Below, in pieces: positions 4,455-44,738 of a stretch of 64,000 bases of DNA. Under the pieces are notes generated by a model that saw nothing but the letters and a program-made list of their open reading frames with translations, was not told the origin of the DNA and did not search any database. The translations under genes and the position numbers were made by a program. How positions within the stretch are numbered: the first letter of the stretch is position 1; every line of letters starts with the position of its first letter. Source of the DNA: a virus; the IMG/VR virus record IMGVR_UViG_3300016667_000367, positions 1 to 64,000 of that record; one strand, 5' to 3'.

Positions 4455-4658
4455 ATGTTTAAAGTTAAGTATGACAAAGACAAGGCAATCTTCCTGCGAA
4501 AGATCGGATGGGAATACAGTGATATTGCTGAGTTTCTTCAGTGCAGTGAGTCATGGTGCAAGCTGAATCTCAAAGGAGTTGAGAAGGATAAAGAACTTAT
4601 GCATAAGGCAGCGGTTATTGCTCGTTTGTATATTCAGCAAGTTAAGGAAGAAGTATGA
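4455..4658 (+). CDS. hypothetical protein (67 aa)
   Basis: ORF track; ATGA overlap with next gene. Confidence 0.45.
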   Translation: MFKVKYDKDKAIFLRKIGWEYSDIAEFLQCSESWCKLNLKGVEKDKELMHKAAVIARLYIQQVKEEV

Positions 4659-5917
4659 CTAAAACAGTAGAAGTTCTTGATGCCCTAATGGGTTCAGGTA
4701 AGACTCATGCAATCATTGAATACATGAGTAAGCACCAAGATAGACCTTGGTTGTATATCAGCCCTATGCTTGAAGAGGTTGATTCCAGAGTTCCTGAGAG
4801 GGCAGACGAACTTGGTCTTGAGTTATTCATTCCATATGCTGATGATTTGCACACAAAGGCAGAGACTTGTCTGAAAGCACTGAGTAAAGGAATGAATGTG
4901 TGCTGTACTCACAATCTGATGTATAAGTTCACCAAGCACCACCTTGCAGAGATCAAGAAGCACGGCTATAACGTAGTATCAGATGAAGAACTCAATTTGA
5001 TAAATGGTTATGGCACAAAAAAGGAAGACATTGAATTTCTAATCAATAATGAAATTATCAAGATTGATGAAGAATCGGGTCAGGTTATATTTTTAGATGA
5101 GGATATGTCACTAGAGGCTAAGTATGGTGACATCAAAGCTAAATCCGATCTTGGTATGCTTTATGCAGCAAAAAGAAGCACTAGGTTCATGGTTGTTCAG
5201 CTATCCCCTAAGATTATTGACAATTCGGAAAGATTCATTCTTCTGACATATAACTACAAGGGTAGTTTAATGCAGACCTTCATGACTATGCATGGATATG
5301 AGTACAAAGAATTTAACGAGGTAACTCTATACAAGACAAACAAGGAAATCATAAAGGACTTGCTTGAAAGGATTGAGTTTATTGAGACACCATCAGTAAA
5401 GAAAATACAAAATAGCTTTACACTGAGTAAGTCTTGGTGGGTTAATGCTTCTGCAAAAGAAAGAGAATCCGTAGCTAAGTGCATCAGGTCTTGTATGCTT
5501 AAAGCTGGACTAAAGAAGGGTGAAATATTTTATACAGTACCAAAAGATTACTCGACAAAAGCAAAAGGATTCAATACGCAGTGGATAGGCAGTCAACCTG
5601 AGATTGGACAAGATGGTGAACCAATAGAAAGCACAAGAAGTTTTATTGCTTGTAATGCAAGAAGTACTAACGTGTATGCTGAGAAGAAATTAGCAGTACA
5701 TGCTTACAATATGTATCCAAATCAGGCTGTAAAGGCTTTCATACAGGGTCAGGGGTATGTTTGTGATGATGAAGTGTTTGCACTAAACATGATGCTACAA
5801 TGGTTGTTCAGAGGATGCATACGTAAGAAGGATGGGAGCAAGATGAAAGTAGCTATACTAAGCAAGAGAATGAGTGTACTATTCAAGGAGTGGTTGATGA
5901 AGAGTACAAAGTCGTGA
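4655..5917 (+). CDS. P-loop NTPase (N-terminal Walker A GSGKTH); Zot/RepA-like, possible replication-initiation or DNA-transaction ATPase
   Basis: MTKTVEVLDALMGSGKTHAIIEY at the N-terminus. Confidence 0.45.
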   Translation: MTKTVEVLDALMGSGKTHAIIEYMSKHQDRPWLYISPMLEEVDSRVPERADELGLELFIPYADDLHTKAETCLKALSKGMNVCCTHNLMYKFTKHHLAEIKKHGYNVVSDEELNLINGYGTKKEDIEFLINNEIIKIDEESGQVIFLDEDMSLEAKYGDIKAKSDLGMLYAAKRSTRFMVVQLSPKIIDNSERFILLTYNYKGSLMQTFMTMHGYEYKEFNEVTLYKTNKEIIKDLLERIEFIETPSVKKIQNSFTLSKSWWVNASAKERESVAKCIRSCMLKAGLKKGEIFYTVPKDYSTKAKGFNTQWIGSQPEIGQDGEPIESTRSFIACNARSTNVYAEKKLAVHAYNMYPNQAVKAFIQGQGYVCDDEVFALNMMLQWLFRGCIRKKDGSKMKVAILSKRMSVLFKEWLMKSTKS

Positions 5918-6268
5918 AGGCTGGTTCTTCATGTCACCATCAATTTCATGTGTCGTAAACAGTGTTTTTTGAGGCCAATCCTTAAGAACCAAGAGAGAAA
6001 TTAAACAAAGAAGAAACTGACGTTATTTGCACCTCGCATTGCTTGTATAGTATATTACTGCAAAAAGGTGCAAATAAAATATCTCAACAAAAGGAACCAT
6101 CATGCCAATCCAAGACCTTATCCAAATTCTTAAAACATACCTCCGAGAAGAAGGTAATCTTGATGTAGTAATCAAGGATTCAAAATATCTTGTGTACTTC
6201 CCTATTGAAGTTCATCTTCAGGAGGATAGGGTTGGTAAATTCTTAATCATTGAGTAAAAAGTAAATCC

Positions 6269-6902: not shown

Positions 6903-7655
6903 ATGAAGCGTCCTGCAAAAATGTCTCGTAGAGAAAAGTCACAACAAGGTCATGATGGAGCTATTGCTAATCGCAAGGCGCACAACTGGTCCGAGCAATA
7001 TGGCATTAACCAAATTAAATTAACAGTCAGTCAAACTGAACTTATGCACAAGATTCAGAATAACACACTGACTTTTGTTGATTCCGTGGCGGGTAGTGGT
7101 AAATCATTAACTGCACTTTATACTTTTGTAAAGGAGTATTTGAGGGACAATACAAAACAACTCATTATTATTCGTACACCAGTTGAAGCCGGTATGGATA
7201 AGATTGGTGCACTTCCTAATGAGTACGAAGCAAAAATTGAACCGCACTTTGCAAGCACTAGGAAGATTCTTGAGGAACTTCTGAGCAGGGGTAAAGTAGA
7301 AACTGACCTAGGACATAGGATTCACTTCAAGATTCCAAACTTTGTTCTTGGTGCAACATTTGATAACTCCTTAATTCTTTTGGATGAAATGCAACAGGTT
7401 CCGCCAAATATCCTAAAGCTACTTCTTGAGCGTATTGGTGTTGATAGTAAGTGCGTTGTCATGGGCGATAGTACTCAACTATATACTGGCACCGACAGCA
7501 AGCGTAATGGTCTTAAGGATGCATTGGGTCGATTCCTAGATACTGATGGTGAGCCAAAATACAACGATGTAGCATTTCATAAATTTGGTATTCAAGATGT
7601 AATGCGTAGCGAAATCGTAAAAACTGTAATCACGGCTTATACTGGTCTTGTATAA
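6903..7655 (+). CDS. phoH: PhoH-like ATPase
   Basis: Walker A VAGSGKS, LLDEMQQ and VVMGDSTQ motifs as in PhoH family. Confidence 0.65.
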   Translation: MKRPAKMSRREKSQQGHDGAIANRKAHNWSEQYGINQIKLTVSQTELMHKIQNNTLTFVDSVAGSGKSLTALYTFVKEYLRDNTKQLIIIRTPVEAGMDKIGALPNEYEAKIEPHFASTRKILEELLSRGKVETDLGHRIHFKIPNFVLGATFDNSLILLDEMQQVPPNILKLLLERIGVDSKCVVMGDSTQLYTGTDSKRNGLKDALGRFLDTDGEPKYNDVAFHKFGIQDVMRSEIVKTVITAYTGLV

Positions 7656-7668
7656 ACAAGAAAATCCG

Positions 7669-7697
7669 TTGACAGTAGGACAGGACTGTAGTAACAT
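7669..7697 (+). promoter_or_regulatory. sigma70-type promoter TTGACA-17-TAACAT for the downstream homing endonuclease
   Basis: ttgacagtaggacaggactgtagtaacat read directly. Confidence 0.45.
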
Positions 7698-7725
7698 ACA
7701 GTCTTGTTCAATCTTAAAGGTACTT

Positions 7726-8514
7726 ATGACCTCAAAAGTAAATATTCTTGGTAAAGTATTTCAATCCAAAAACTACGGAGAGTACATTGTTACTGAGTAT
7801 AAAAGTTGGAGAGAAGTTCACATAATGTTTACAGCAACAGGATTTAAAACTGTAGCTCAATTAAAAGAGATAAGAACCGGAATGGTTAAAGATTATCTCC
7901 TACCTACTATTTGTGGCGTTGGATATCTTGGTATCGGTGATTATAAGTGCCAGCGTATAAACGAATATGGTAAACGCGCAAATACGCCGGAGTATGAAGT
8001 ATGGAATGGAATGTTGAAACGCTGCTATAACAAGGAGTGGAGAGATAAGCAGGGTAGGCAATCATACGAAGGCGTGACCGTTTGTATTGAGTGGCATAAC
8101 TTCCAAAATTTTGCAAAGTGGTTTAACGAAAATAAACCAGAAGGTGATTACGCACTAGACAAGGACTTAAAAATTATTGGAAATAGGCAATACAGTCCTG
8201 AATCATGCACATTTCTACCAGTAAGAGTGGACAGTCTGTTTACTGGAACTATGGATGATCGTGATCTACCAAGAGGTGTTCATTTCTGTAAAAATAAAAA
8301 GAAATACATCGTGCAACTACACAAGGGTGATGTGACTGCAAAAGGTAATCCAAAACAAACATATCTTGGTGCATACACAAGTAAAGATGATGCAATTCGT
8401 GCTTATCGAGAAGCAAAGATTGAGGTGGTTAGTAAAGTTGCAGAGGAATATAAGGATGTTCTTGATCCAGTTGTATATCAGAACTTAAAAACACGGGTTT
8501 TAGAATTTATTTAA
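7726..8514 (+). CDS. free-standing homing endonuclease of the HNH-AP2 type (DKD..GN..YSPEsC nuclease core plus C-terminal AP2 domain), paralog of 30886..32181
   Basis: WNGMLKRCYN...W.NFQNFAKW...LDKDLKIIGNRQYSPESCTF; AP2-like LPRGVHFCKNKKKYIVQ...YLGAYTSKDDAIRAY; start moved to MTSKVN ATG with RBS. Confidence 0.6.
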   Translation: MTSKVNILGKVFQSKNYGEYIVTEYKSWREVHIMFTATGFKTVAQLKEIRTGMVKDYLLPTICGVGYLGIGDYKCQRINEYGKRANTPEYEVWNGMLKRCYNKEWRDKQGRQSYEGVTVCIEWHNFQNFAKWFNENKPEGDYALDKDLKIIGNRQYSPESCTFLPVRVDSLFTGTMDDRDLPRGVHFCKNKKKYIVQLHKGDVTAKGNPKQTYLGAYTSKDDAIRAYREAKIEVVSKVAEEYKDVLDPVVYQNLKTRVLEFI

Positions 8515-10168: not shown

Positions 10169-10414
10169 TTAGCTCCAATCCAGCAGGTTTTTATATGCTG
10201 GACTCATTGTCCCGTTGGTATATGCGGCATATGAGTGCCAGTTCCCATGATCCGGAAAATCCTCTATTTCATAGCCAATGTATCCGGCGCGTTCATTAAT
10301 TACGACAATTTCATGCGCTTTTTTAAACGCTCTTTTCCAATCTAATTTGTCTCCTGATTGATAGTAAAAAACCCTGATTTGTTTCCCATTGTAAAAGACT
10401 GCAAAACATCCCAT
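10169..10414 (-). CDS. hypothetical protein (81 aa) in GC-rich island
   Basis: ORF track; last gene of the island operon. Confidence 0.5.
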   Translation of the reverse strand: MGCFAVFYNGKQIRVFYYQSGDKLDWKRAFKKAHEIVVINERAGYIGYEIEDFPDHGNWHSYAAYTNGTMSPAYKNLLDWS

Positions 10415-10419
10415 TTTAA

Positions 10420-11181
10420 TTACCCCTTAAAGTTAGACTTAGCTGAACCATGCGATACAATTGCAATGGATTTTGCTTTGATACTGGAGCCGCTGCAAAG
10501 CTTGCAAGCCTCGCAGGTTACACGGCGCCCGGCCTCCTCACTAGCTGGGCATAGGATTTCGTTTTTCAACACGGAGCTTGCCCCCTTGTCCTTCCATTCT
10601 TGCACTGGGATAACCCGAAAAGTCCGGTAGCCGTTATTGTGCAGGGTTTGCGCCTGCCTTGCATTATCTGCACTAATCATAAGCTTTGCGGTGTCAATAC
10701 CCGGATATTCCCCTAACTGGTGCGTGTATCCGGTATGTCCCAAAGCTTCGGACAATAAAGCCTCGAATCTTGCACTATAAATAGCCGCCGGGTCGCCATA
10801 GGTGCCGAGGCGAATCATACGCCCCCTGCCGATTTCACGCGCCTGGTCATCGGTCAGGATTGGATATTTGCCCGCCAGGAATGCCCTATAAACTGCGCCG
10901 GCTCCCTGGCCAATGGTGACATAACACGATCGACCATCCGCTAACCCTTTTGTCTTTTCGGGGTTTGCCTTGCCGCGATGCACGCAACGACCACAGATTG
11001 AATAATCCCGGTCTGTCCGATTAGCCGTTATAGGGTCCATGTCAGCCCGCAGGATGTAGGTTTGAACCATGTTCCCGGTCTTGCTGTTAGTGCTTTTGGC
11101 GATTGCGATGACGACAATAGGCGCTCCATCAATACGCGACGGACCCTGATACAGGATGCCGGATTGGATTTTCTTTTTCAT
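10420..11181 (-). CDS. Cys-rich hypothetical protein (253 aa; CGRC ... CEACKLC)
   Basis: ORF track; GC about 52% versus about 38% in flanks; preceded by the conserved leader motif. Confidence 0.55.
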   Translation of the reverse strand: MKKKIQSGILYQGPSRIDGAPIVVIAIAKSTNSKTGNMVQTYILRADMDPITANRTDRDYSICGRCVHRGKANPEKTKGLADGRSCYVTIGQGAGAVYRAFLAGKYPILTDDQAREIGRGRMIRLGTYGDPAAIYSARFEALLSEALGHTGYTHQLGEYPGIDTAKLMISADNARQAQTLHNNGYRTFRVIPVQEWKDKGASSVLKNEILCPASEEAGRRVTCEACKLCSGSSIKAKSIAIVSHGSAKSNFKG

Positions 11182-17717: not shown

Positions 17718-17745
17718 GACTTAAGTATAGCACAAATTCTTAAGC
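17718..17745 (-). promoter_or_regulatory. copy 4 of the recurring 28-bp motif
   Basis: tgacttaagtatagcacaaattcttaag. Confidence 0.4.
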
Positions 17746-21971: not shown

Positions 21972-22012
21972 GATTTACCTTTGGTTGTTGTAAGTGAAGT
22001 ATAGCACAGGTT

Positions 22013-22243
22013 TTACTGTTTGCTGGATATCTTAGATATGCACCTGTCAAGTAATTCCCATGCTTCGGTTCCTGACCATGTTTCATCGAAGGCTTCTTGA
22101 ACAATCTTACGGCAGCGTTCTTGCTCAATCTTAACTCCAGCTTGCCAGCCTTCCCATGCCCAGAAAGCCGGTGAACCTGCCTCGTATGGGTTGTCGGTGG
22201 TGATTTCTCCTTCGTTCCACCATGCGTTGAACTCTGGCGTCAT
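22013..22243 (-). CDS. hypothetical small protein (start at MTPEFNAWWNEGE)
   Basis: ORF track trimmed; ATGA overlap with upstream stop. Confidence 0.4.
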   Translation of the reverse strand: MTPEFNAWWNEGEITTDNPYEAGSPAFWAWEGWQAGVKIEQERCRKIVQEAFDETWSGTEAWELLDRCISKISSKQ

Positions 22244-22458
22244 TTGTCGCCCCTTGCTTGGATTGCCTCTACGGCGTACTTCAACCAGCCTTCCGGCCCG
22301 CTGGGCCAGTAGTAGCTGGCCTCGCACGCCTCGATGCAGCGTTTGCGCTCGGCAGCGGCGATCAGGGCGGCAAAGCGTAGAAGCATGTCGTCATTCAAAG
22401 ACCACCCGTCAAACATGCCTGCCTCCCTCGCCATGCGGATGATGTCGTCTCGGGTCAT
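22240..22458 (-). CDS. hypothetical protein (72 aa), GC-rich patch
   Basis: ORF track. Confidence 0.45.
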   Translation of the reverse strand: MTRDDIIRMAREAGMFDGWSLNDDMLLRFAALIAAAERKRCIEACEASYYWPSGPEGWLKYAVEAIQARGDK

Positions 22459-22994
22459 GTGTTCTCCTTGATGCCGTGAGCTGCCTCGATGGCGCGGGCA
22501 AAGTCTTTTGCATACAGCCAGCGAACGCGCAGGTTCTCCACTGTGTCGTGTGGGCAGCTACGCAGTGCGTCGCGCAGTTCCTCATCCGTCAGCGGCTGGC
22601 GAGGTGGCTGCGGGTGGGTGTAGAGCGGAACCTCCCTTCCAGTGCCAGCGTTATAGAACTCAAGCCCGCAGCGAACTCCACCATCATCAACATCCATCCA
22701 CGCCACCGGCTCAACCTGCTGCTCGGCCTCAAGGGCTTGGCGTAGGGTGCCGATAGCGTCATATCCTTTGACGACTCCATCAGCAACACCCTTCAAGCGA
22801 AGCTGCATAGCGTTCAGTAAGCGGAACCTTTCTTCTGCGGAGCCTGGAAGCATGTCTCTGAACTCTTTAACGTATGCTCCGGCCCAAGTCTCTCCATACT
22901 TCTCAGCGTGCTCGCGCATCTGTATCAATCCAGTACGCAACAGCTCCAGCGCCTCCAGCGCCTGCTGTGCGGCTTGTATCAGTTTGTCGCTCAT
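22455..22994 (-). CDS. hypothetical protein (179 aa), founding member of a local paralog family (QAAQQALEALE ... FARAIEAAHGI)
   Basis: ORF track; GC about 60%. Confidence 0.5.
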   Translation of the reverse strand: MSDKLIQAAQQALEALELLRTGLIQMREHAEKYGETWAGAYVKEFRDMLPGSAEERFRLLNAMQLRLKGVADGVVKGYDAIGTLRQALEAEQQVEPVAWMDVDDGGVRCGLEFYNAGTGREVPLYTHPQPPRQPLTDEELRDALRSCPHDTVENLRVRWLYAKDFARAIEAAHGIKENT

Positions 22995-23036
22995 AGTCTG
23001 CTCCTGTGTGTTAGTGTCTATGCAGTTATTATAGCA

Positions 23037-23234
23037 TCACTTGACGGTGCCTACATAGTGCGCAGCCATATACAAGTCTGGCACTGTGTCTGCAGTGTTC
23101 CAACGCAGGTTGTAGTTGCGAGCATAGTTCCGGGCTTCGGCCTCGGTTGCGAAGTAAAGCACTTCGTCTACCTTCTGTCCCCAACCTGCTTCGCTTTCGA
23201 TGATCTCTACCTTGTGCAGTCCGATCTGTGTCAT
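23037..23234 (-). CDS. hypothetical protein (65 aa)
   Basis: ORF track. Confidence 0.45.
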   Translation of the reverse strand: MTQIGLHKVEIIESEAGWGQKVDEVLYFATEAEARNYARNYNLRWNTADTVPDLYMAAHYVGTVK

Positions 23235-23246
23235 TGTGTGCTCCTG

Positions 23247-23585
23247 TTAACTGATACCGTGGGCACGCTCAATGGCGCGGGCGAAGTCAACAAAAGACCC
23301 GCTTTTCCTATCTACAGCAAAAATTATTGACCGAATTTCTACTTCAGACAGTGGATTTCTCTGCGTTACTAATGCCTTAGCAGCTTCCTGCGCTTGAAAC
23401 AATGCGCTGGTTAGCGCCTTCACCTGTGCTTGGCACGCTTGCAACGGCGTTGGCTCTGGCGGCTTCAGATTGCCTTCAGAATCGAAGCGTTCCGGCTGGC
23501 ATGTAGGGCATATCTGCCAATGCTCGCAGTTGCAATTCCTCATTTGTGCTCCTTGCTTGTTACGTTGTGCTTTGCGGCCATCCAC
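23247..23585 (-). CDS. hypothetical protein (112 aa; GTG start), paralog (C-terminal FARAIERAHGIS)
   Basis: ORF track. Confidence 0.45.
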   Translation of the reverse strand: MDGRKAQRNKQGAQMRNCNCEHWQICPTCQPERFDSEGNLKPPEPTPLQACQAQVKALTSALFQAQEAAKALVTQRNPLSEVEIRSIIFAVDRKSGSFVDFARAIERAHGIS

Positions 23586-23982
23586 GCCCCTAAACCAAGC
23601 GTGTATTGGTTGACGTATTGGTCATATGTAGTATCTGATGGGGTCGGAATTTCTCTGACAATATCGCCATCACCAATGAACCACGCATCGAACCATGTCT
23701 TAAATGCCGCAAATTCTTCGCTGACATTCAGCGGCTGCTGCGCTGGTTGATGCGGTCGTTCATATAGCGCAACCGCGCCTTCGTCGGTTTCGGCGCAATC
23801 AGTCCAGCCAAACGGTTCAGCTTTGAAATAGCCAAACGGCTCATCCTGCTGCTCTGCCTCAAGGGTTTGGCGCAGGGCGGTGATGGCTTTCTCGCATTTG
23901 CGCTCAACAAGGCTTGGGCAAATTCAATGGCTTGCTCCAGAGCCTTAATCGCCTGCTGGGCGGCTTGTCGTAGTGTTACCAC
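23586..23982 (-). pseudogene. frameshifted and internally deleted paralog of 22455..22994 (N-terminus in one frame from GTG 23982, C-terminal LEAEQQDEP...YERPHQPAQQPL in the -1 frame)
   Basis: two-frame hand translation; DNA similarity to 22690..22750. Confidence 0.4.
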
Positions 23983-24104
23983 AATGCATCCTCCATTTCA
24001 TTACGTCGCTGTTCTTGCATCTTCTTGAGTAGCTTCTGCATCTCAGCAGGAGTCAACTGCTTGAATGGGTTGGTTGGCCAACCTTGAGTGTACGGATACT
24101 TCAT
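23976..24104 (-). CDS. small protein (42 aa), first gene of the minus early block
   Basis: RBS aaaggagta then ATG. Confidence 0.35.
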   Translation of the reverse strand: MKYPYTQGWPTNPFKQLTPAEMQKLLKKMQEQRRNEMEDALW

Positions 24105-24131: not shown

Positions 24132-24161
24132 ATCTTAGCACAAGACAAGAGCAGCTTGCAA
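24132..24161 (-). promoter_or_regulatory. sigma70-like promoter TTGCAA-18-TAAGAT for the minus early block
   Basis: read on minus strand; divergent from the plus block. Confidence 0.35.
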
Positions 24162-24732
24162 CAGATTTTTGAACTTTTTTTTTTCTTACCAGCACCGCTT
24201 GCTTTCCTACTTGGACTTGTGCTAGACTGCAGTCATGCAGAAAAACCTCATGGGTTTCATGCAAGCTAGGCTGCAGCGGAGGTTGTGGTACACAAGGGGT
24301 TCACCAAGTCTCCCCTGCTTGCATCCATGAGGCAACCTCGGTGCGCTCATTACGGGGAACTGCCGGTACATATGTCCAGAAGGTGCCAACGAGGCATCAA
24401 TATGGATTCCCTATAGCCGAAGAGGCTTGAAGGATGGCAAGATCAAGCATAAAGCTGTTCAGTCAGTAGTTGCTTGACCCTATCCGGAGAGTTAGATTAG
24501 GGACACTCTGCGTAGTCGAAGCGATTCGAGGGTCAGTTTGAGTGCTATGCTTACTAAGGGATAGGGTTAGTCCGTCCTTTGAGTAAGAGCATATCACTCA
24601 CGAATCTCAGCTCATCTCAGGTCAGTACTAGGAAATATAAGTAAACTATAGGTACTAAGTAATAATAGAAATAAGTAATGAATAAGAGTAAGTAACTATG
24701 CTAAAGTAACTTAACTCAACTAAGGAGGTAGT

Positions 24733-24909
24733 ATGTTCAATCAGAGTATGGATGATGTCTTTGCATGGAAGGATGGAAGTTGGATTTACAGATATGAATA
24801 CTACGAACTACCTGAGTTCAAAGGGGAAGATCACATGAACTTTATAGTTATCTTTAAGGAAGATAAGGAAAGCTACAAAGCATTTTGGAATGAGGTTAAA
24901 CTAAAATGA
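24733..24909 (+). CDS. small protein (58 aa), degenerate paralog of the zinc-ribbon fragment at 28974..29138
   Basis: RBS taaggaggt; DVFAWKDGSWIYRYE vs DVFVWPDGSWCYRCE. Confidence 0.45.
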   Translation: MFNQSMDDVFAWKDGSWIYRYEYYELPEFKGEDHMNFIVIFKEDKESYKAFWNEVKLK

Positions 24910-30885: not shown

Positions 30886-32181
30886 ATGTTTACTGAAGGT
30901 TTTATTGGTAAAAATAAGCAAGGACTTACATATGAAGTACTTGATGCAAAGAAATCAAAACAAATTAGGATTCGTTTTGAAGACGGAGTAGAACTAGTAA
31001 CAACAAAACGTTATCTAAGTAACGGACTCCCGCTGCATCCTACAAAATTCAAGATGCTTCCGGGAGACATTCATAAAGACCGAGATTCTGTTGAATTTGA
31101 GCTAATTGAAAAAATAGGCGGAGGGACTTGGAAGATTAGATACTTGAAAGATGGAGTCGAATGCACAAGGGAAACCTCAACAATAAAAGAATGCGGAGGC
31201 AGGCATCCTATTGATTCCGTTCCTGCTGTTGGTGATGTCTATGCAGTTAATTCCGGACTTGTAAAAATTATTGAGTATAAATCAGCGACTGATGTAACAG
31301 TTGAATTTGAAGATGGCTCTGTTGTGAAAACAACTGCAAGCTGCTTAAGGCACAAAAATGTTGGTCATCCGACTTCAGGGATAAAAGTAGGTCAAAAAAG
31401 AACAACAAATAGTGGTTGGGAGTACACCATAGAGAAATATGTTTCTCCTACAGAAGTTTATGTTCGTATGCAGGATGGCTCTATTGAGAAAATTTCTGCG
31501 AGGGATGCAAAAACAGGAGGTTTTAAACCATGTAATCAACCGTCTGTTGCTGGTGTTGGATTTATTGGGCAAGGTAGGTTCACTAATTTGCTTAAGAAAG
31601 ATGGAGAAAAAGCGCCAGAAGAAATTTATAGTTATTGGCACAGAATGATTGGCAGGTGTTACAACCCTGCAGAAATTGTTAAAAATTCTGGAAGAAGATA
31701 TATTTTCGTAAATATATACAAAGACTGGTTCAACTTTCAAAACTTTGCTGAATGGGCTTTGTCTCAACCTAACTGGAACATGCGTCATGATCTAGACAAA
31801 GACCTTTTAGGTAATGGTACAGAGTATTCCCCTGAAAATTGTACATTTCTGCCATCAGAGATAAACGTATTTCTTGCTGAAAACTGGTCAAAGACAACAC
31901 ACGATCTACCTATTGGAGTTCAGTACATTAAACCAGCAACTGTAGGATCAAAAGAAGGGTATGTAGCAAGGTGTCACACAGATAATGGCAGAGAATATCT
32001 TGGGTATTTTGATGATCCAATGGATGCACATATTGCCTACAAAAATACAAAGGAAGCATATGCAAAAGTGCTTGCTGAAAAGTTTAAAGATGTTATAACA
32101 GAAAAAGCTTACAAGGCTTTAATTAATTTTAGACTGACAAAAACTTATTCTGATCCTCCGCACGTTTGTGGCCAGAGCTAA
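30886..32181 (+). CDS. free-standing homing endonuclease of the HNH-AP2 type, with four N-terminal about-45-aa repeat modules and a C-terminal AP2 domain
   Basis: YSYWHRMIGRCYN...WFNFQNFAEW...LDKDLLGNGTEYSPENCTF; AP2-like LPIGVQYIKP...YLGYFDDPMDAHIAY; paralog of 7726..8514. Confidence 0.6.
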   Translation: MFTEGFIGKNKQGLTYEVLDAKKSKQIRIRFEDGVELVTTKRYLSNGLPLHPTKFKMLPGDIHKDRDSVEFELIEKIGGGTWKIRYLKDGVECTRETSTIKECGGRHPIDSVPAVGDVYAVNSGLVKIIEYKSATDVTVEFEDGSVVKTTASCLRHKNVGHPTSGIKVGQKRTTNSGWEYTIEKYVSPTEVYVRMQDGSIEKISARDAKTGGFKPCNQPSVAGVGFIGQGRFTNLLKKDGEKAPEEIYSYWHRMIGRCYNPAEIVKNSGRRYIFVNIYKDWFNFQNFAEWALSQPNWNMRHDLDKDLLGNGTEYSPENCTFLPSEINVFLAENWSKTTHDLPIGVQYIKPATVGSKEGYVARCHTDNGREYLGYFDDPMDAHIAYKNTKEAYAKVLAEKFKDVITEKAYKALINFRLTKTYSDPPHVCGQS

Positions 32182-32251
32182 AACCAACAGCCAGCCTTGC
32201 GCTGGCTTTTCTTTTTGTGCTATACTTCACTTAAAGTAAGAAAGGAAAACC

Positions 32252-34333: not shown

Positions 34334-34390
34334 AAAACCAAGCACAGGCGTAAAAACCTGTGCTATACTCAAGTCTCACAAGGAGAAATC

Positions 34391-41097: not shown

Positions 41098-42045
41098 ATG
41101 CAAGATCATTTAGTGCCTGTGTATGAAGATAAGAATGTTGTAGAACTAGCAGAACAGCAGCTGAAAATTTTCTGGCTTCCAGATGAAATTAAAGTTGAAA
41201 AAGATGTACAAGATGTGCTGACTAATTTTACTGAAGCTGAAAAACACGCAGTTCTTACTACACTAAAGCTATTTAGTATTTACGAAACTCATGCCGGAGA
41301 TGAGTGGTGGTCTGGACGTTTCAAGGAAATCTTTAATCGTGCTGACTATCACAGGATGGCTAGTGTATTCAGTATGTTTGAACTAGCGGTTCACGGACCA
41401 TTCTATAATAAGATTAATGAGCTTCTGTATATCAATACTCCTGAGTTTTACCTATCTTATCAAGAAGATAAAACTCTAAGCTCTCGTGTTGAGCACATTG
41501 GAGAGATGATTTCAAATAAAGATGACTGCGTAGCCCTTGGTAGTTTTTGCATGGTTGAAGGTGTGATTCTCTATTCTAGTTTTGCTTTTCTAAAGCATTA
41601 TCAGTCTCAGGGAAAAAATAAACTTGCAAATGTAGTTCGTGGATTGAACCTGAGCGTCCGTGATGAGGCGATTCACTCAAAAGCAAGTGCTTATGCATTT
41701 AATTTAAAGTTTAAAGAACATCCTTATAAAGAAAAAGTAGTATCTGAGCTAAAGAAAACAGCAGAGCTTATTCTTGAACATGAAAAACAAATCATTTCAA
41801 AACTTTTTGAGAAAGGTAAAATTGAAGGAATTACTGCACATCAACTTGAAAACTTTGTGATGTCTAGAATTAATGAATGTTTCAAGGACATGGGCCTTGA
41901 GAAGATTTTTGATGTAAAATATAATCCAATCGCTGAATGGTTCTATAAGGGAATCAACGATTACCAGTTTAATGATTTCTTTGCTGGTCAAGGTAATCAA
42001 TATCACCGTAATTGGGATGAGTCTAGTTTTATTTGGAGCAACTAA
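41098..42045 (+). CDS. nrdB: ribonucleotide reductase small subunit (class I R2)
   Basis: di-iron ligand motifs FELAVH, VEGVILYSSFAF, VRDEAIH. Confidence 0.7.
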   Translation: MQDHLVPVYEDKNVVELAEQQLKIFWLPDEIKVEKDVQDVLTNFTEAEKHAVLTTLKLFSIYETHAGDEWWSGRFKEIFNRADYHRMASVFSMFELAVHGPFYNKINELLYINTPEFYLSYQEDKTLSSRVEHIGEMISNKDDCVALGSFCMVEGVILYSSFAFLKHYQSQGKNKLANVVRGLNLSVRDEAIHSKASAYAFNLKFKEHPYKEKVVSELKKTAELILEHEKQIISKLFEKGKIEGITAHQLENFVMSRINECFKDMGLEKIFDVKYNPIAEWFYKGINDYQFNDFFAGQGNQYHRNWDESSFIWSN

Positions 42046-44738
42046 TGTCTGAAAATCTGTACGAAAAACTTAGTAACGAGCGCAAAAAACTTCAAGAAGA
42101 AGGTCTTGTACCGGACTGGTATACAACAGCAGGCTGGCAAATGTTTAAACAAAAGTACCTATACGAAACTGATCGAGCAGTTAAAGGGCAGTTTGAGCGA
42201 ATTGCAAGCACAGCAGCAAAGCATGTAAAAGATCAGTATCCTGAAGCAGAGAATAAGTTCTTCGATCTTCTGTGGAATGGTTGGCTATCTCCCTCAACAC
42301 CTGTTCTTGCAAATATGGGCACTAATCGGGGTATGCCTGTTAGTTGTTCAGGGACTGTAGTAACTGACTCTGTTGATGGTTTCTATAGCAATCTACATGA
42401 AGTTGCAATGCTAACTAAATACGGATTTGGCACTGCTTCTGACCTTTCATATATTCGTCCTCGTGGGTCTAAAATCTCTGTAGGTGGGAAGGCATCTGGT
42501 GTACTTCCAATCATCAAGGAGCATGTAAGTGCAATGCGAAATATTGCTCAAGGTACAGCTCGACGAGGTGCATGGGCAGCTTATCTTGATATCGAACATG
42601 GTGACTTCTATGAAGTAGTCAACTATATGTCTTCTGAACCTGATGATTTAAATATTGGTTGGACAATTAAACAATCATTTATTGATCGACTTAACTCAGG
42701 TGATAGTGATGCTGTTGCTAGGTTTCAGAAAGCAATGAAAACAAAAATGATTCTTGGTAAAGGATACTTTTTCTTTATTGATAAGGCAAATGCAAAGCGT
42801 CCTGTTATGTATAAGGATAAAGGTTTACAGATTAATAATAGTCAATTGTGTGTTGCACCTGAGACTTTAATCCTAACGGATGAAGGTTATCAACAAATCT
42901 CTGATCTAGAAAACGAAACTGTTAATGTATGGAATGGTAAGAAGTTTTCAAAGGTAATTGTTAAGAAAACTGGAGAAAATCAAAATCTTCTAAAGGTAAT
43001 AACAAATAGTGGTTTTGAACTGGAATGTACACCTTATCACAAATTTTATGTTGCAATCAGGAACGAAATTTCTGGAAATACTAAAATTGTAGAAAAGCGA
43101 GCACATGAACTTAAAGCAGGCGATAAGCTAATAAAATGCGATTTCCCTATTATCCAAGGCAATCAACAGCTAGACTATGCATATGAAAATGGATTTTTTA
43201 GTGCAGACGGTTGCCTAGATAGAAATGGTCAAAGACTTTATTTTTACCATGAAAAACGAAACCTTAAAAATTTCGTTGACATGAGTATTTTCAAGAATTG
43301 GATTGTTGATGAAAAGCAAAACAGGGAATACGGAACTACTTTTGTATTAAAAGACAAGTTCTTTGTTCCAAGCGGTGACTACACTATTGAATCTAAAGTT
43401 AAATGGCTAGAAGGTTTCCTCGATGGTGATGGTGTCGTATGCCGTAATGGTAAAACACAGAGTATTCAAGCAAGCAGTGTCAATAAAGATTTTCTCCTAG
43501 AAATTCAAATGATGCTGCAAACTATGGGAGTTTCATCTAAGGTTACGAAATGTTCAGACGCCAGTTATAGAGATATGCCTGCAAATGATGGCACTGGTGG
43601 AACTAAAGAGTATTTTTGTCAAACTTCTTGGCGAATCATGTTTGGTCAAACTGGAATCGTAACACTTCAGGGTATGGGATTCAATCCAAAGCGACTTGTG
43701 ATTACAGATCACAAACCAAACCGAGAATGCTCTCAGTTTGTAAAGATCTCAGAAGTTATTGATGAAGGTCGTGTTGATGATACTTACTGCTTTACTGAGC
43801 AAGAAAGAGGGATGGGAGTATTTAACGGTATCCTAACAGGTCAATGTTCTGAAATCATGCTGTTCAACGATGAAGACCATACGTACACTTGTGTTTTATC
43901 GTCAATGAATGCAAGTAAGTATGATGAATGGAAAAAGACAGATGCCGTATTCTGGGCTACAGTATTTCTTGACTGCGTAGCTAGTGAGTTTGTAGAAAAA
44001 GCAACAGGTATTAAAGGACTTGAGAAAGCTGTTCGATTTACAGAAAAGAGTCGTGCTTTGGGTCTTGGTCTTTGTGGTCTCCATACAGCTATGATGCAAA
44101 AGATGATGCCTGTTGAATCCTATGATGCTTACGAACTAAGTCAGGAAATTCAAGAATTTATTTGGAATGAAGCAACAAAAGCAACTAAGGATATGGCAGC
44201 TAAACTAGGTGAACCTGATTGGTGCAAAGGTTATGGTGTACGTAATACTCACTTGATTGCAATTGCACCAACTAAATCAACTGCTTTGCTAATGGGTGGT
44301 ATCTCTGAAGGTATCAATCCAGATCCAGCAATGACGTTTGTACAGGCTACATCTGCTGGTGAAGTAGATCGAGTAAATCCAGTATTGCTTGAGCTTATGA
44401 AAAAGAAAGGTGTGTATACAAGAAAAAATATCCAGCAAATCACAGACGAACAAGGATCTGTTCAGCATGTAGATTGGTTGACTGCAGAAGAAAAGGAAGT
44501 TTTCAAGACTGCTTTTGAAATTAATCAGAAATCAATTCTACAGCTTGCATCTGCTCGTAGTAGGTTCATTGATCAATGGCAGAGTCTAAATCTATTCTTC
44601 GCTGCAGATGAAGACCCTGCGTGGATTGCTGAAGTACATAAGCAAGCGTTTGAAGATCCTAATATTCTTGCGCTATACTATATCTACACTCAAGCTGGAG
44701 TTCAGGCAGCGAAGGGTGAATGCGAATCTTGTCAATAA
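42033..44738 (+). CDS. nrdA: ribonucleotide reductase large subunit (class I, no ATP cone), interrupted by an intein
   Basis: SPSTPVLANMGT; active-site NSQL-[intein]-CSEI reconstitutes the NxCxE motif. Confidence 0.85.
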   Translation: MEQLMSENLYEKLSNERKKLQEEGLVPDWYTTAGWQMFKQKYLYETDRAVKGQFERIASTAAKHVKDQYPEAENKFFDLLWNGWLSPSTPVLANMGTNRGMPVSCSGTVVTDSVDGFYSNLHEVAMLTKYGFGTASDLSYIRPRGSKISVGGKASGVLPIIKEHVSAMRNIAQGTARRGAWAAYLDIEHGDFYEVVNYMSSEPDDLNIGWTIKQSFIDRLNSGDSDAVARFQKAMKTKMILGKGYFFFIDKANAKRPVMYKDKGLQINNSQLCVAPETLILTDEGYQQISDLENETVNVWNGKKFSKVIVKKTGENQNLLKVITNSGFELECTPYHKFYVAIRNEISGNTKIVEKRAHELKAGDKLIKCDFPIIQGNQQLDYAYENGFFSADGCLDRNGQRLYFYHEKRNLKNFVDMSIFKNWIVDEKQNREYGTTFVLKDKFFVPSGDYTIESKVKWLEGFLDGDGVVCRNGKTQSIQASSVNKDFLLEIQMMLQTMGVSSKVTKCSDASYRDMPANDGTGGTKEYFCQTSWRIMFGQTGIVTLQGMGFNPKRLVITDHKPNRECSQFVKISEVIDEGRVDDTYCFTEQERGMGVFNGILTGQCSEIMLFNDEDHTYTCVLSSMNASKYDEWKKTDAVFWATVFLDCVASEFVEKATGIKGLEKAVRFTEKSRALGLGLCGLHTAMMQKMMPVESYDAYELSQEIQEFIWNEATKATKDMAAKLGEPDWCKGYGVRNTHLIAIAPTKSTALLMGGISEGINPDPAMTFVQATSAGEVDRVNPVLLELMKKKGVYTRKNIQQITDEQGSVQHVDWLTAEEKEVFKTAFEINQKSILQLASARSRFIDQWQSLNLFFAADEDPAWIAEVHKQAFEDPNILALYYIYTQAGVQAAKGECESCQ
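42849..43844 (+). mobile_element. 332-aa intein with LAGLIDADG homing-endonuclease domain at the catalytic Cys of NrdA; ends in Gly-Gln with Cys at +1
   Basis: block A CVAPETLILTDEGY; LAGLIDADG motifs GFFSADGC and GFLDGDG; C-terminal ...ILTGQ|CSEI. Confidence 0.7.

Follow-up and report, generated by a model that had tools for sequence, protein, structure and literature searches.

Morons are extra, compositionally deviant genes found between conserved phage genes (Hendrix and colleagues; PMC3594210), and their definition includes a promoter and a terminator of their own as well as expression from a repressed prophage to the benefit of the host (PMC3594210). In T4-type phages, the cassettes known as PeSL consist of early ORFans flanked by promoter/stem-loop motifs that mediate shuffling (PMC2839356, PMC4122927), and in the gp38 adhesins of T-even phages, glycine-rich conserved motifs separate hypervariable segments, and exchanges take place within or close to those motifs (PMC3157838). 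For both the PeSL and the gp38 motifs, a role as patches of homology has been proposed (PMC2839356, PMC3157838). Here we compare with these systems a GC-rich patch of 2.1 kb at positions 22013..24104 (minus strand) of the window, by which we mean the whole 64,000-nucleotide (nt) stretch that was analyzed, taken from IMG/VR virus record IMGVR_UViG_3300016667_000367. The patch holds seven small genes, three of which (copies 1, 2, and 3) share sequence motifs. The best overall explanation, and in our judgment a likely one, is a horizontally acquired seven-gene cassette that includes modular genes and in which copy 3 is a pseudogene.

The cassette and its setting

When GC content was measured in 500-nt windows, values in the patch were 0.50 to 0.61, compared to 0.398 ± 0.032 outside it (the peak of 0.61 corresponds to z 6.4), and they were sustained at or above 0.50 from ~22050 to ~24000; the patch is 50-62% GC against a background of 39.8%. 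An earlier note on this DNA had described GC of about 60% for about 1.8 kb inside an AT-rich block. The rise is real, but ~60% GC is confined to roughly 22200-22800, the remainder of the patch being at 50-55%. GC content at third codon positions (GC3) was 0.49-0.77 across the seven patch genes, compared to 0.28-0.41 for a set of genes elsewhere in the window (ThyX, deaminase, macro-domain, ligase, PolA, and capsid genes); the 111-amino-acid (aa) gene directly left of the patch has a GC3 of 0.47. The synonymous-site composition of the patch is foreign.

All seven genes lie on the minus strand, tightly packed or overlapping, in the order g1, copy 3, copy 2, g4, copy 1, g6, g7. Most junctions overlap (GTGGTAA, ATGA) or measure 12-42 nt and contain (A/C)AGGAGCA ribosome sites. 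The first gene behind a leftward promoter-like motif is g1 (42 aa; 23976..24104; 46% GC), for which an identical product is called on 5 contigs. Copy 3 comes next and is frameshifted, as seen from its three-frame translation and from ~100 homologues in single open reading frames (ORFs). It had been assigned to 23586..23982; its actual span is 23540..23982, with the stop of its downstream frame (frame B, below) overlapping the start of copy 2 as ATGA. Copy 2 (98 aa; 23247..23543) is likelier to start at the ATG at 23543, which has an AAGGAG Shine-Dalgarno sequence upstream, than at the 23585 given previously. The 65-aa product of g4 (23037..23234) matches phrog_14410, of unknown function (E 2e-7). 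Copy 1 (179 aa; 22455..22994) is intact, and an identical protein (P0001) is encoded on a 76,055-bp contig. Its C-terminal ...GIKENT is encoded by GGCATCAAGGAGAACACATGA, and since this sequence holds the Shine-Dalgarno sequence and start codon of g6, the C-terminal motif of copy 1 partly doubles as a translation-coupling signal; a GIKENT-type peptide also ends many copy 1 homologues. Both the start and the stop of g6 (72 aa, MTRDDIIRMAREAG...; 22240..22458) overlap neighboring genes, and homologues of g6 adjoin members of the modular family described below in 9 loci from GC-richer phages. The last gene, g7 (76 aa; 22013..22243; placed from the ORF list, GC3, and GC windows), is 55% GC in the 5' half but only 43% in the 3' half, a drop that marks the left edge of the patch.

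The phage that carries the cassette has a genome of ~40% GC and roughly 76 kb, the matching MEGAHIT contig being the one of 76,055 bp (European Nucleotide Archive [ENA] ERZ27292648, k141_601892). It encodes a primase-helicase, PolA, a ribonucleotide reductase, RNA and DNA ligases, ThyX, a dCMP deaminase, a macro-domain protein, and five tRNAs, and a non-exhaustive search saw no integrase among the ORFs examined. Megablast gave no matches among GenBank phages, where this phage has no close relative, and no relative was found when the ligase was used as a single-protein query in IMG/VR. The minus strand carries the genes left of ~24100 and the plus strand those right of 24733, and this strand switch places the patch at the start of a leftward operon.

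Three related phages (L032, L034, and L035) were located via their DNA ligases, which are 65-68% identical to that of the window. Their gene order is a TGTGCTAAGAT motif, an 83-84-aa gene, a variable slot, a 154-165-aa gene, genes of 71, 96, and 113 aa, deaminase, and ThyX. The window's homologues of the 83-aa and 154-aa genes lie at 21971-21636 (the 111-aa gene) and 21636-21142, and the seven patch genes are upstream of them, directly behind the motif at 24142-24132. Seven extra genes therefore stand between a promoter-like motif and an 83-84-aa-gene homologue that are adjacent in the relatives, and none of the three relatives has the cassette at this position: the block is an insertion relative to related phages. 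The variable slot of L032 is empty. L034 and L035 have other inserts of 49-56% GC in the neighboring slot, each with one or two members of the modular family (L034 3021-3991 and 4028-4555; L035 3862-4825), which start MTEKFVTLPREVLEQAL and end FARAIEAAHNIK or FTRAVESAHNIK, and with a phosphoesterase-like gene. Because these other GC-richer inserts also carry family members, we conclude that the lineage has repeatedly held modular-family genes in its promoter-proximal variable region. The gene beside the slot family members in L034 and L035 (175-197 aa) contains the motif GDVAMK...GNHD and appears to be metallophosphoesterase-like.

The leftward promoter-like motif in front of g1 is TGTGCTAAGAT (24132..24142, minus strand), of the extended -10 type, and its homologue precedes the first leftward gene of the relatives. 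A second promoter-like motif, TGTGCTATACT (21998..22008, minus strand), is situated between g7 and the 111-aa gene; as it follows g7 directly, the cassette has a promoter-like element on either side, the two with similar leaders (alignment A4). The exact 11-mer TGTGCTATACT is intergenic at 17724-17734 (-), 21998-22008 (-), 32216-32226 (+), and 34359-34369 (+), and it also occurs in the relatives (L032 12749, L034 12747, L035 12748). Its copies are oriented with local transcription, about 25-40 nt ahead of start codons, and in both the window and the relatives it precedes polA, where it lies behind a GC hairpin with a T-run. This recurrence suggests that TGTGCTATACT is probably the promoter consensus of the lineage, of the extended -10 type. 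A crude consensus scan of the cassette borders found no sigma-70-like promoter and no terminator.

The arrangement resembles PeSL cassettes in its hyperplastic early region, in the conserved intergenic promoter-like motif that stands on both flanks of the cassette in the same (minus) orientation, and in the way that relatives vary by the presence, absence, or replacement of genes in adjacent slots. Unlike in PeSL cassettes, no hairpin adjoins the two flanking motifs, the polA copy alone following one, and the motif is unrelated in sequence to T4 early promoters. The suggestion of a moron cluster, made previously, fits loosely. The cassette is extra DNA compared to related genomes, is deviant in GC and GC3, and contains accessory-type genes, but it is not self-contained, lying behind the operon's own promoter-like motif with no terminator found, and it comprises seven genes as opposed to one or two. 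The recipient also differs from a moron carrier in having virulent-phage replication genes, and given these genes and the absence of an integrase among the ORFs examined, expression from a repressed prophage probably does not apply as a point of comparison.

On the right side of the patch, a promoter-like TGTGCTAGACT (24218-24228, plus strand) stands back-to-back with the leftward motif, and ~400 nt of non-coding DNA with ~50% GC (region 24218-24620) lie between it and the first rightward gene at 24733. This stretch, which folds more stably than shuffled sequences (z -3.0 for the plus strand and -2.2 for the minus), is a candidate small RNA or structured leader; the intergenic region right of the patch had no match in Rfam. 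In its place, the spacer of the relatives is AT-rich, unrelated in sequence, and contains AACTTAAGT-like repeats.

A modular family with linkers conserved as DNA

Family searches returned 622 matches for copy 1 and 612 for copy 3 with its frame repaired, nearly all of them unnamed metagenomic proteins. We defined family membership as significant similarity over at least one module plus linker, which includes copy 1, repaired copy 3, and the C-terminal module of copy 2, for which hhalign against the copy 1 family aligned the last 38 columns only (96% probability, E 1.3e-9). The units of the family, which are interchangeable in number and order, are an N-terminal helix, helical hairpins, small beta units, zinc-ribbon units, and three-helix end modules. 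Some proteins have the end module at the C-terminus, others have it at the N-terminus (P0057, P0064), and it is doubled in P0007 and P0053; P0121 and P0013 have two beta units, and some members are fused to a Lar-type zinc ribbon or a WDGH domain.

The AlphaFold2 model of copy 1 (predicted local distance difference test score 81.5) comprises a helical hairpin (residues 3-92), a three-stranded beta unit (98-124), and a three-helix end module (137-172) that ends FARAIEAAHGIKENT, with the RQPLTDEE linker between the last two. Among 120 listed proteins, residues 131-175 of copy 1 are matched by 107-121 and residues 1-55 by 4-13, and copy 1 shares with a few relatives an extra helical-hairpin insert of ~55 aa that has no counterpart in most family members. 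The internal deletion attributed to copy 3 is thus to be reversed, copy 1 being the one that carries an insert. Copy 2 consists of an N-terminal zinc-knuckle-like module, a coiled coil, and a C-terminal PLSEVEI...FARAIERAHGIS module. Its N-terminal module (35-60 residues) is found in 111 cluster representatives with unrelated C-termini, the matches falling mostly on residues 1-60, and its invariant positions are C4, C6, E7-H8-W9, C12, and C15 (alignment A6), with H8 also in the zinc-knuckle set. Copy 3 is made up of an N-terminal helix (QAAQQAIKALE), a loop, an ALRQTLEAEQQ linker, a EPFGYFKAEPFGWTDCAETDEGAVALYERP beta module, and a C-terminal part for which no homologues were detected.

Scans of all seven products against Pfam, PHROGs, and NCBIfam found nothing except phrog_14410 for g4. 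Copy 2 had no Pfam match at E up to 0.1, PF14354 (Lar) included; of the family, only the distant members P0025 and P0053 matched PF14354. PDB sequence profiles and Foldseek against PDB produced only generic coiled-coil matches with E above 1, BFVD only uncharacterised proteins of uncultured phages, the literature nothing that matched the family motifs searched as strings, and exact-product look-ups no result for copy 1 or for an 84-aa ORF at the start of copy 3. The genome scan used the trimmed alignment A3, A2 being too diverse; a profile comparison of A1 with A2 (E 8e-32) is circular, as A1 contains copy 1, and was not relied on. Given the early, nin-like or ea-like position of the genes, the coiled-coil and small-domain build of the proteins, and the occasional Lar-type zinc-ribbon fusion, we weakly favor a role as non-enzymatic early accessory proteins that may bind host or phage partners. 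Like the accessory genes of lambdoid early-left, ea, and nin regions, homologues lie beside NinB, RusA-like, and HNH genes in MW202710 and near an integrase in a Rubrivivax prophage, and the Lar-type zinc ribbon or WDGH of some members is a further likeness. Unlike those accessory genes, Lar (PF14354) among them, no protein of the window matches PF14354 or another Pfam, PHROG, or NCBIfam family of known function. The proteins of the window may also resemble Ea22-like proteins.

The linkers that recur in the family are AAQQALEAL, ALRQALEAEQQ-EP, RQPLTDEE, and FARAIEAAHGI together with the ribosome site of the next gene. The RQPLTDEE linker of copy 1 (CGCCAGCCGCTGACGGATGAGGA; 22579..22601, minus strand) is conserved at the nucleotide level across the family: the 23 nt of copy 1 that encode RQPLTDE(E) are 100% identical in 12 otherwise dissimilar loci, and at module borders PLTDE is encoded by the conserved CCGCTGACGGATGA. 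We recounted codon usage in an unbiased set made up of L001, L031, and L035 plus L037-L062, the latter found through the FGW module. All 12 non-redundant linkers in this set used CTG ACG for Leu-Thr, and 10 of the 11 that have a following Asp used GAT for it. In contrast, synonymous sites vary freely in an invariant peptide from the same loci, FGWTDCAE, in which Thr was ACG in 2/21. The difference between 12/12 and 2/21 indicates that the RQPLTDEE linker is conserved beyond protein-sequence need. Between genes that are otherwise unrelated, the remaining linkers also reappear, as short stretches of nearly identical DNA. A pair of Logan contigs from SRR6423793 (34.7 kb and 957 bp) meet at 22596-22625, where they overlap by 30 nt beside the RQPLTDEE linker; this break could reflect a linker that is repeated in the assembly graph.

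The beta module of copy 3 (23728..23878, minus strand), which lies between the linkers GCC.TGCGCCAA and CCGCTGA and encodes ALRQTLEAEQQDEPFGYF...HQPAQQPL, differs at only 5 of 151 nt (96.7% identity) from the gene for P0122 on two Joint Genome Institute (JGI) contigs (L063 and L064). Other family members are 76-88% identical over this stretch, with the exception of L037 (94.7% over 131 nt). The identity to the P0122 gene starts at GCC(C/T)TGCGCCAA in the ALRQ linker and stops exactly at CCGCTGA, the core of the PLT linker, and the flanks are unrelated on both sides (alignment A5). The beta module of copy 3 has recently been exchanged, with identity ending inside two linkers, and the 151-nt pattern would fit recombination within the linkers. 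We propose that linkers of 20-40 nt may act as homology patches for phage recombination, which would shuffle modules within and between genes. As in gp38, variable modules are set between short, highly conserved motifs, and the exchange unit of copy 3 ends inside such motifs. Unlike gp38, the family consists of small early proteins unrelated to virion adhesins, it exchanges whole folded units and gene starts and ends where gp38 exchanges loops on a fixed core, and its conservation extends to synonymous sites. A broader idea, which we put forward tentatively and would not call probable, is that the linkers owe their conservation as DNA to being working parts of a natural domain-shuffling system, one that lets phage recombinases join modules inside a gene, over the borders of neighboring genes, and among phages that differ widely in GC content.

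The frameshift in copy 3 and the relationship of the copies

The first frame of copy 3 (frame A) begins at GTG 23982, with GGAGGA 6 nt upstream, and runs to the TGA at 23730-23728, its native-frame part extending to about 23887. The second (frame B) is open from 23923 to the TGA at 23542-23540, and its own first start codon is a late in-frame ATG. Since frame B has an upstream stop at 23926-23924 and the conserved (E)KAITALRQ lies in frame B from 23893, the shift is confined to 23885..23923 (minus strand), where the candidate sites are the C-run 23916-23918, G 23893, and the A-run 23888-23890 (A_AAG); one extra base at any of these repairs copy 3. The observation that the third copy reads through only with a switch to the -1 frame near 23880 holds, with the shift needed in 23923-23885, and ~100 homologues read across the junction in a single ORF. 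Judged by this comparison, the frameshift is real relative to the homologues. Gene callers leave copy 3 uncalled or call only the 84-aa frame-A ORF, and the predicted product of the sequence as it stands is these 84 aa, comprising ~30 native residues and an out-of-frame tail. With no other lesion visible in the 126 downstream codons, copy 3 is most likely a young pseudogene that would have arisen by a single-base frameshift in the loop between its first two helices.

The frameshifted sequence is identical in the 76-kb MEGAHIT contig, the 34.7-kb Logan contig (SRR6423793), and JGI contig 3300016265, three assemblies that represent at least two haplotypes. The JGI contig, Ga0185706_139554 (L029), differs from the window by an A-to-G single-nucleotide polymorphism (SNP) at 24347 and by a GGG-to-GG change at 23298-23300 in copy 2, which is 64 nt from the contig end. 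A 774-nt contig of ERZ27292646 (L030) has the same SNP at 24347 and has CCCC at 23916-23918, 8 nt from its end. The shared SNP indicates at least two haplotypes of the phage across samples. Neither allele of the frameshift site turned up when metagenome contigs were scanned for exact patterns of both, that collection evidently being without this phage.

It is unlikely that the frameshift is a homopolymer-length error in the consensus and that copy 3 is an intact gene of ~147 aa, although several observations point that way: the candidate sites are all short homopolymers (CCC, AAA, and G before AG), the CCCC of the contig with the neighboring accession ERZ27292646 restores one frame and yields ...EQAIEFAPSLVERKCEKAITALRQ..., and frame B stays open over 126 codons, with its stop overlapping the start of copy 2 as ATGA. 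However, the MEGAHIT k141 and Logan contigs agree, although the reads behind them may be the same; the JGI contig, which its SNP at 24347 marks as a different haplotype, likewise reads CCC/AAA; and the large genes of the window (1771, 901, 693, and 555 aa) are uninterrupted, so the assembly is not indel-ridden. The CCCC is also only 8 nt from the end of a 774-nt contig, and the other short contig likewise has a homopolymer indel near its end. A programmed -1 frameshift at A_AAG (23890-23887), or on/off slippage in the C-run, is in our estimate very improbable. If tRNA-Lys slipped by -1 on A_AAG, the product would read ...ANARK-AITALRQ... and keep the KAI.ALR motif, and both CCC and CCCC variants exist among the contigs, but 23923-23885 contains no in-frame X_XXY_YYZ heptamer, only the single-codon A_AAG; no stimulatory structure lies downstream (the fold of 23900-23800 has z 0.09 versus shuffles) and no Shine-Dalgarno-like stimulator upstream; and none of the ~100 homologues that span the junction, nor the intact genes in L001, L034, L035, and L063, needs a shift. 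Efficient slippage requires far longer runs than three Cs, which counts against C-run switching. Should the linkers indeed be parts of a domain-shuffling system, as tentatively raised above, the CCC/CCCC difference could be a standing on/off polymorphism.

The relationship of the three copies bears on how the patch arose. The earlier note proposed recombination-derived duplication followed by decay, and three neighboring genes on the same strand with common motifs and short DNA identities of 75-90% do give that appearance. The ~80% DNA identity it saw between 22690-22750 and 23820-23880 is there, more sharply as 90% over 41 nt (22707-22747 versus 23837-23877), with two further patches at 22943-22977 versus 23934-23968 (86%, 35 nt) and 22454-22505 versus 23230-23288 (75%, 59 nt); a match of 23007-22991 to 23247-23231 is merely a common ribosome-site region. 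At the protein level, however, the window copies are only 36-42% identical over 38-62 residues. Copies 1 and 3 are alike in overall architecture, and residues 80-139 of copy 1 align with 33-89 of copy 3 (42%, E 1e-4 within the window). Each of the two motifs said to be present in all three copies is in two of them: the N-terminal QAAQQA..ALE helix is common to copies 1 and 3 only and FARAIE.AHGI to copies 1 and 2 only, copy 3 ending in a weak look-alike, GAWMAAKHNV. Copies 1 and 2 have only their last 38-44 residues in common, and copies 2 and 3 show no significant similarity. A local duplication of copies 1 and 3 was rejected, each having far closer relatives on other contigs (P0002/P0003, 54-75% identity to copy 1; P0122, 74% identity to repaired copy 3); copy 2 is unrelated to them over most of its length and has its own widespread N-terminal module. 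The shared patches are family-wide conserved linkers that recur as near-identical DNA in dozens of other loci and no duplication remnants, and the three genes are paralogous in a modular sense only. An in-place double duplication of one gene, followed by divergence and one decay, accordingly strikes us as very improbable. We give even less credence to the idea that the patch is not foreign, its Ala/Arg/Gln/Pro-rich proteins forcing GC-rich codons, or that the contig is a chimera of two phages. Copy 1 does have a GC content of 0.69 at first codon positions, and the proteins are Ala- and Gln-rich, but because GC3 is raised too, amino-acid composition alone is insufficient to explain the GC content of the patch, and the block is missing from the same position in relatives. 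As for a chimera, the right junction is crossed by L028, L029, and L030 and the left by L024 (21669-22625).

Origin and meaning of the cassette

Loci that bear homologues of the cassette genes are 46-62% GC, and the neighbors of the homologues include helicase, PolA, and terminase genes, a nin-like region in MW202710, and an integrase in a Rubrivivax metagenome-assembled genome (MAG). MW202710 was the sole match among GenBank phages by blastn and tblastn, and a prophage in the Rubrivivax MAG (L031, JAJTDE010000093.1), matched through the end module of copy 1, was the sole match among 185,579 species genomes. The region 2979-7999 of L031 has two paralogues of the family (4560-5168 and 5700-6146), with a C5 DNA methyltransferase-like ORF and a tyrosine integrase-like ORF (7019-7999) identified from their sequences. 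Among homologues that cover most of copy 1, the closest lies on a contig of ERZ27292650, which is near the window's ERZ27292648 in ENA accession number. The synteny of the insertion, the foreign GC3, the homologues at 46-62% GC, and the Rubrivivax prophage all support the earlier proposal of a high-GC phage source, and the cassette was most likely taken from GC-richer phages. In the mechanism we propose, an AT-rich phage of ~76 kb with its own replication genes would have acquired the seven-gene early cassette horizontally, and the cassette would have landed between the leftward motif at 24132-24142 and the second motif at 21998-22008, before the ancestral first gene; the flanking promoter motifs may have offered the insertion site.

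Several points weigh against parts of this account. We found no donor contig with the seven genes in the same order, only g6-like genes near family members being recurrent. As the family recurs in the L034 and L035 inserts, part of the cassette could be older and only slowly ameliorating. The CCCC of L030 would restore the frame of copy 3, which may point to an intact allele or to errors near contig ends. No function could be assigned from Pfam, PHROG, NCBIfam, PDB sequence, or PDB fold searches, none of which gave a usable match. With respect to the linkers, our first set of loci was retrieved by a peptide pattern that included RQPLTDEE and was hence biased, the recombination role is drawn from sequence patterns, and selection at the level of RNA or translation could also fix codons.

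Some features elsewhere in the window are recorded here for completeness. Another GC-rich patch at 10400-10900 (51-54%) covers an ORF at 10420-11181 (253 aa, phrog_2554, unknown function), and no member of the modular family was detected in it. As the earlier note counts 22140-24000 as its second patch, this one is presumably its first. An HNH endonuclease ORF (431 aa; 30886-32181, plus strand) lies between the primase-helicase and PolA genes; in the relatives, HNH genes are found elsewhere (L034 9402-10001 and L032 15201-15734, before the ligase and after PolA), and these differing positions suggest mobile homing-type endonucleases. The large subunit of ribonucleotide reductase (901 aa; 42033-44738, plus strand) has PHROG matches at about residues 26-372 and 602-901, and the unmatched gap of ~230 residues could be an inserted domain or an intein.

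The overall phenomenon is ordinary phage mosaicism, of which the cassette is an unusually clear example, and a specialist might find only two parts of it worth following, the intragenic linkers conserved as DNA and the clean exchange unit. Annotation should mark copy 3 as a frameshifted gene and start copy 2 at 23543. The locus illustrates the uptake of accessory genes by an AT-rich phage from a GC-richer pool, with breakpoints visible at base resolution. If the donor pool consists of temperate phages of the same host, the composition of the patch and the Rubrivivax prophage relative may be a clue to that host. The modular family is large, with more than 600 matches per search, and no model of known function represents it in Pfam, PHROGs, or NCBIfam. 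If the linkers do serve domain shuffling, the family would amount to a combinatorial library of early proteins, perhaps under arms-race selection. Its linker codons are more conserved than those of its invariant peptides, and this provides a testable model for the reassembly of small phage early genes.

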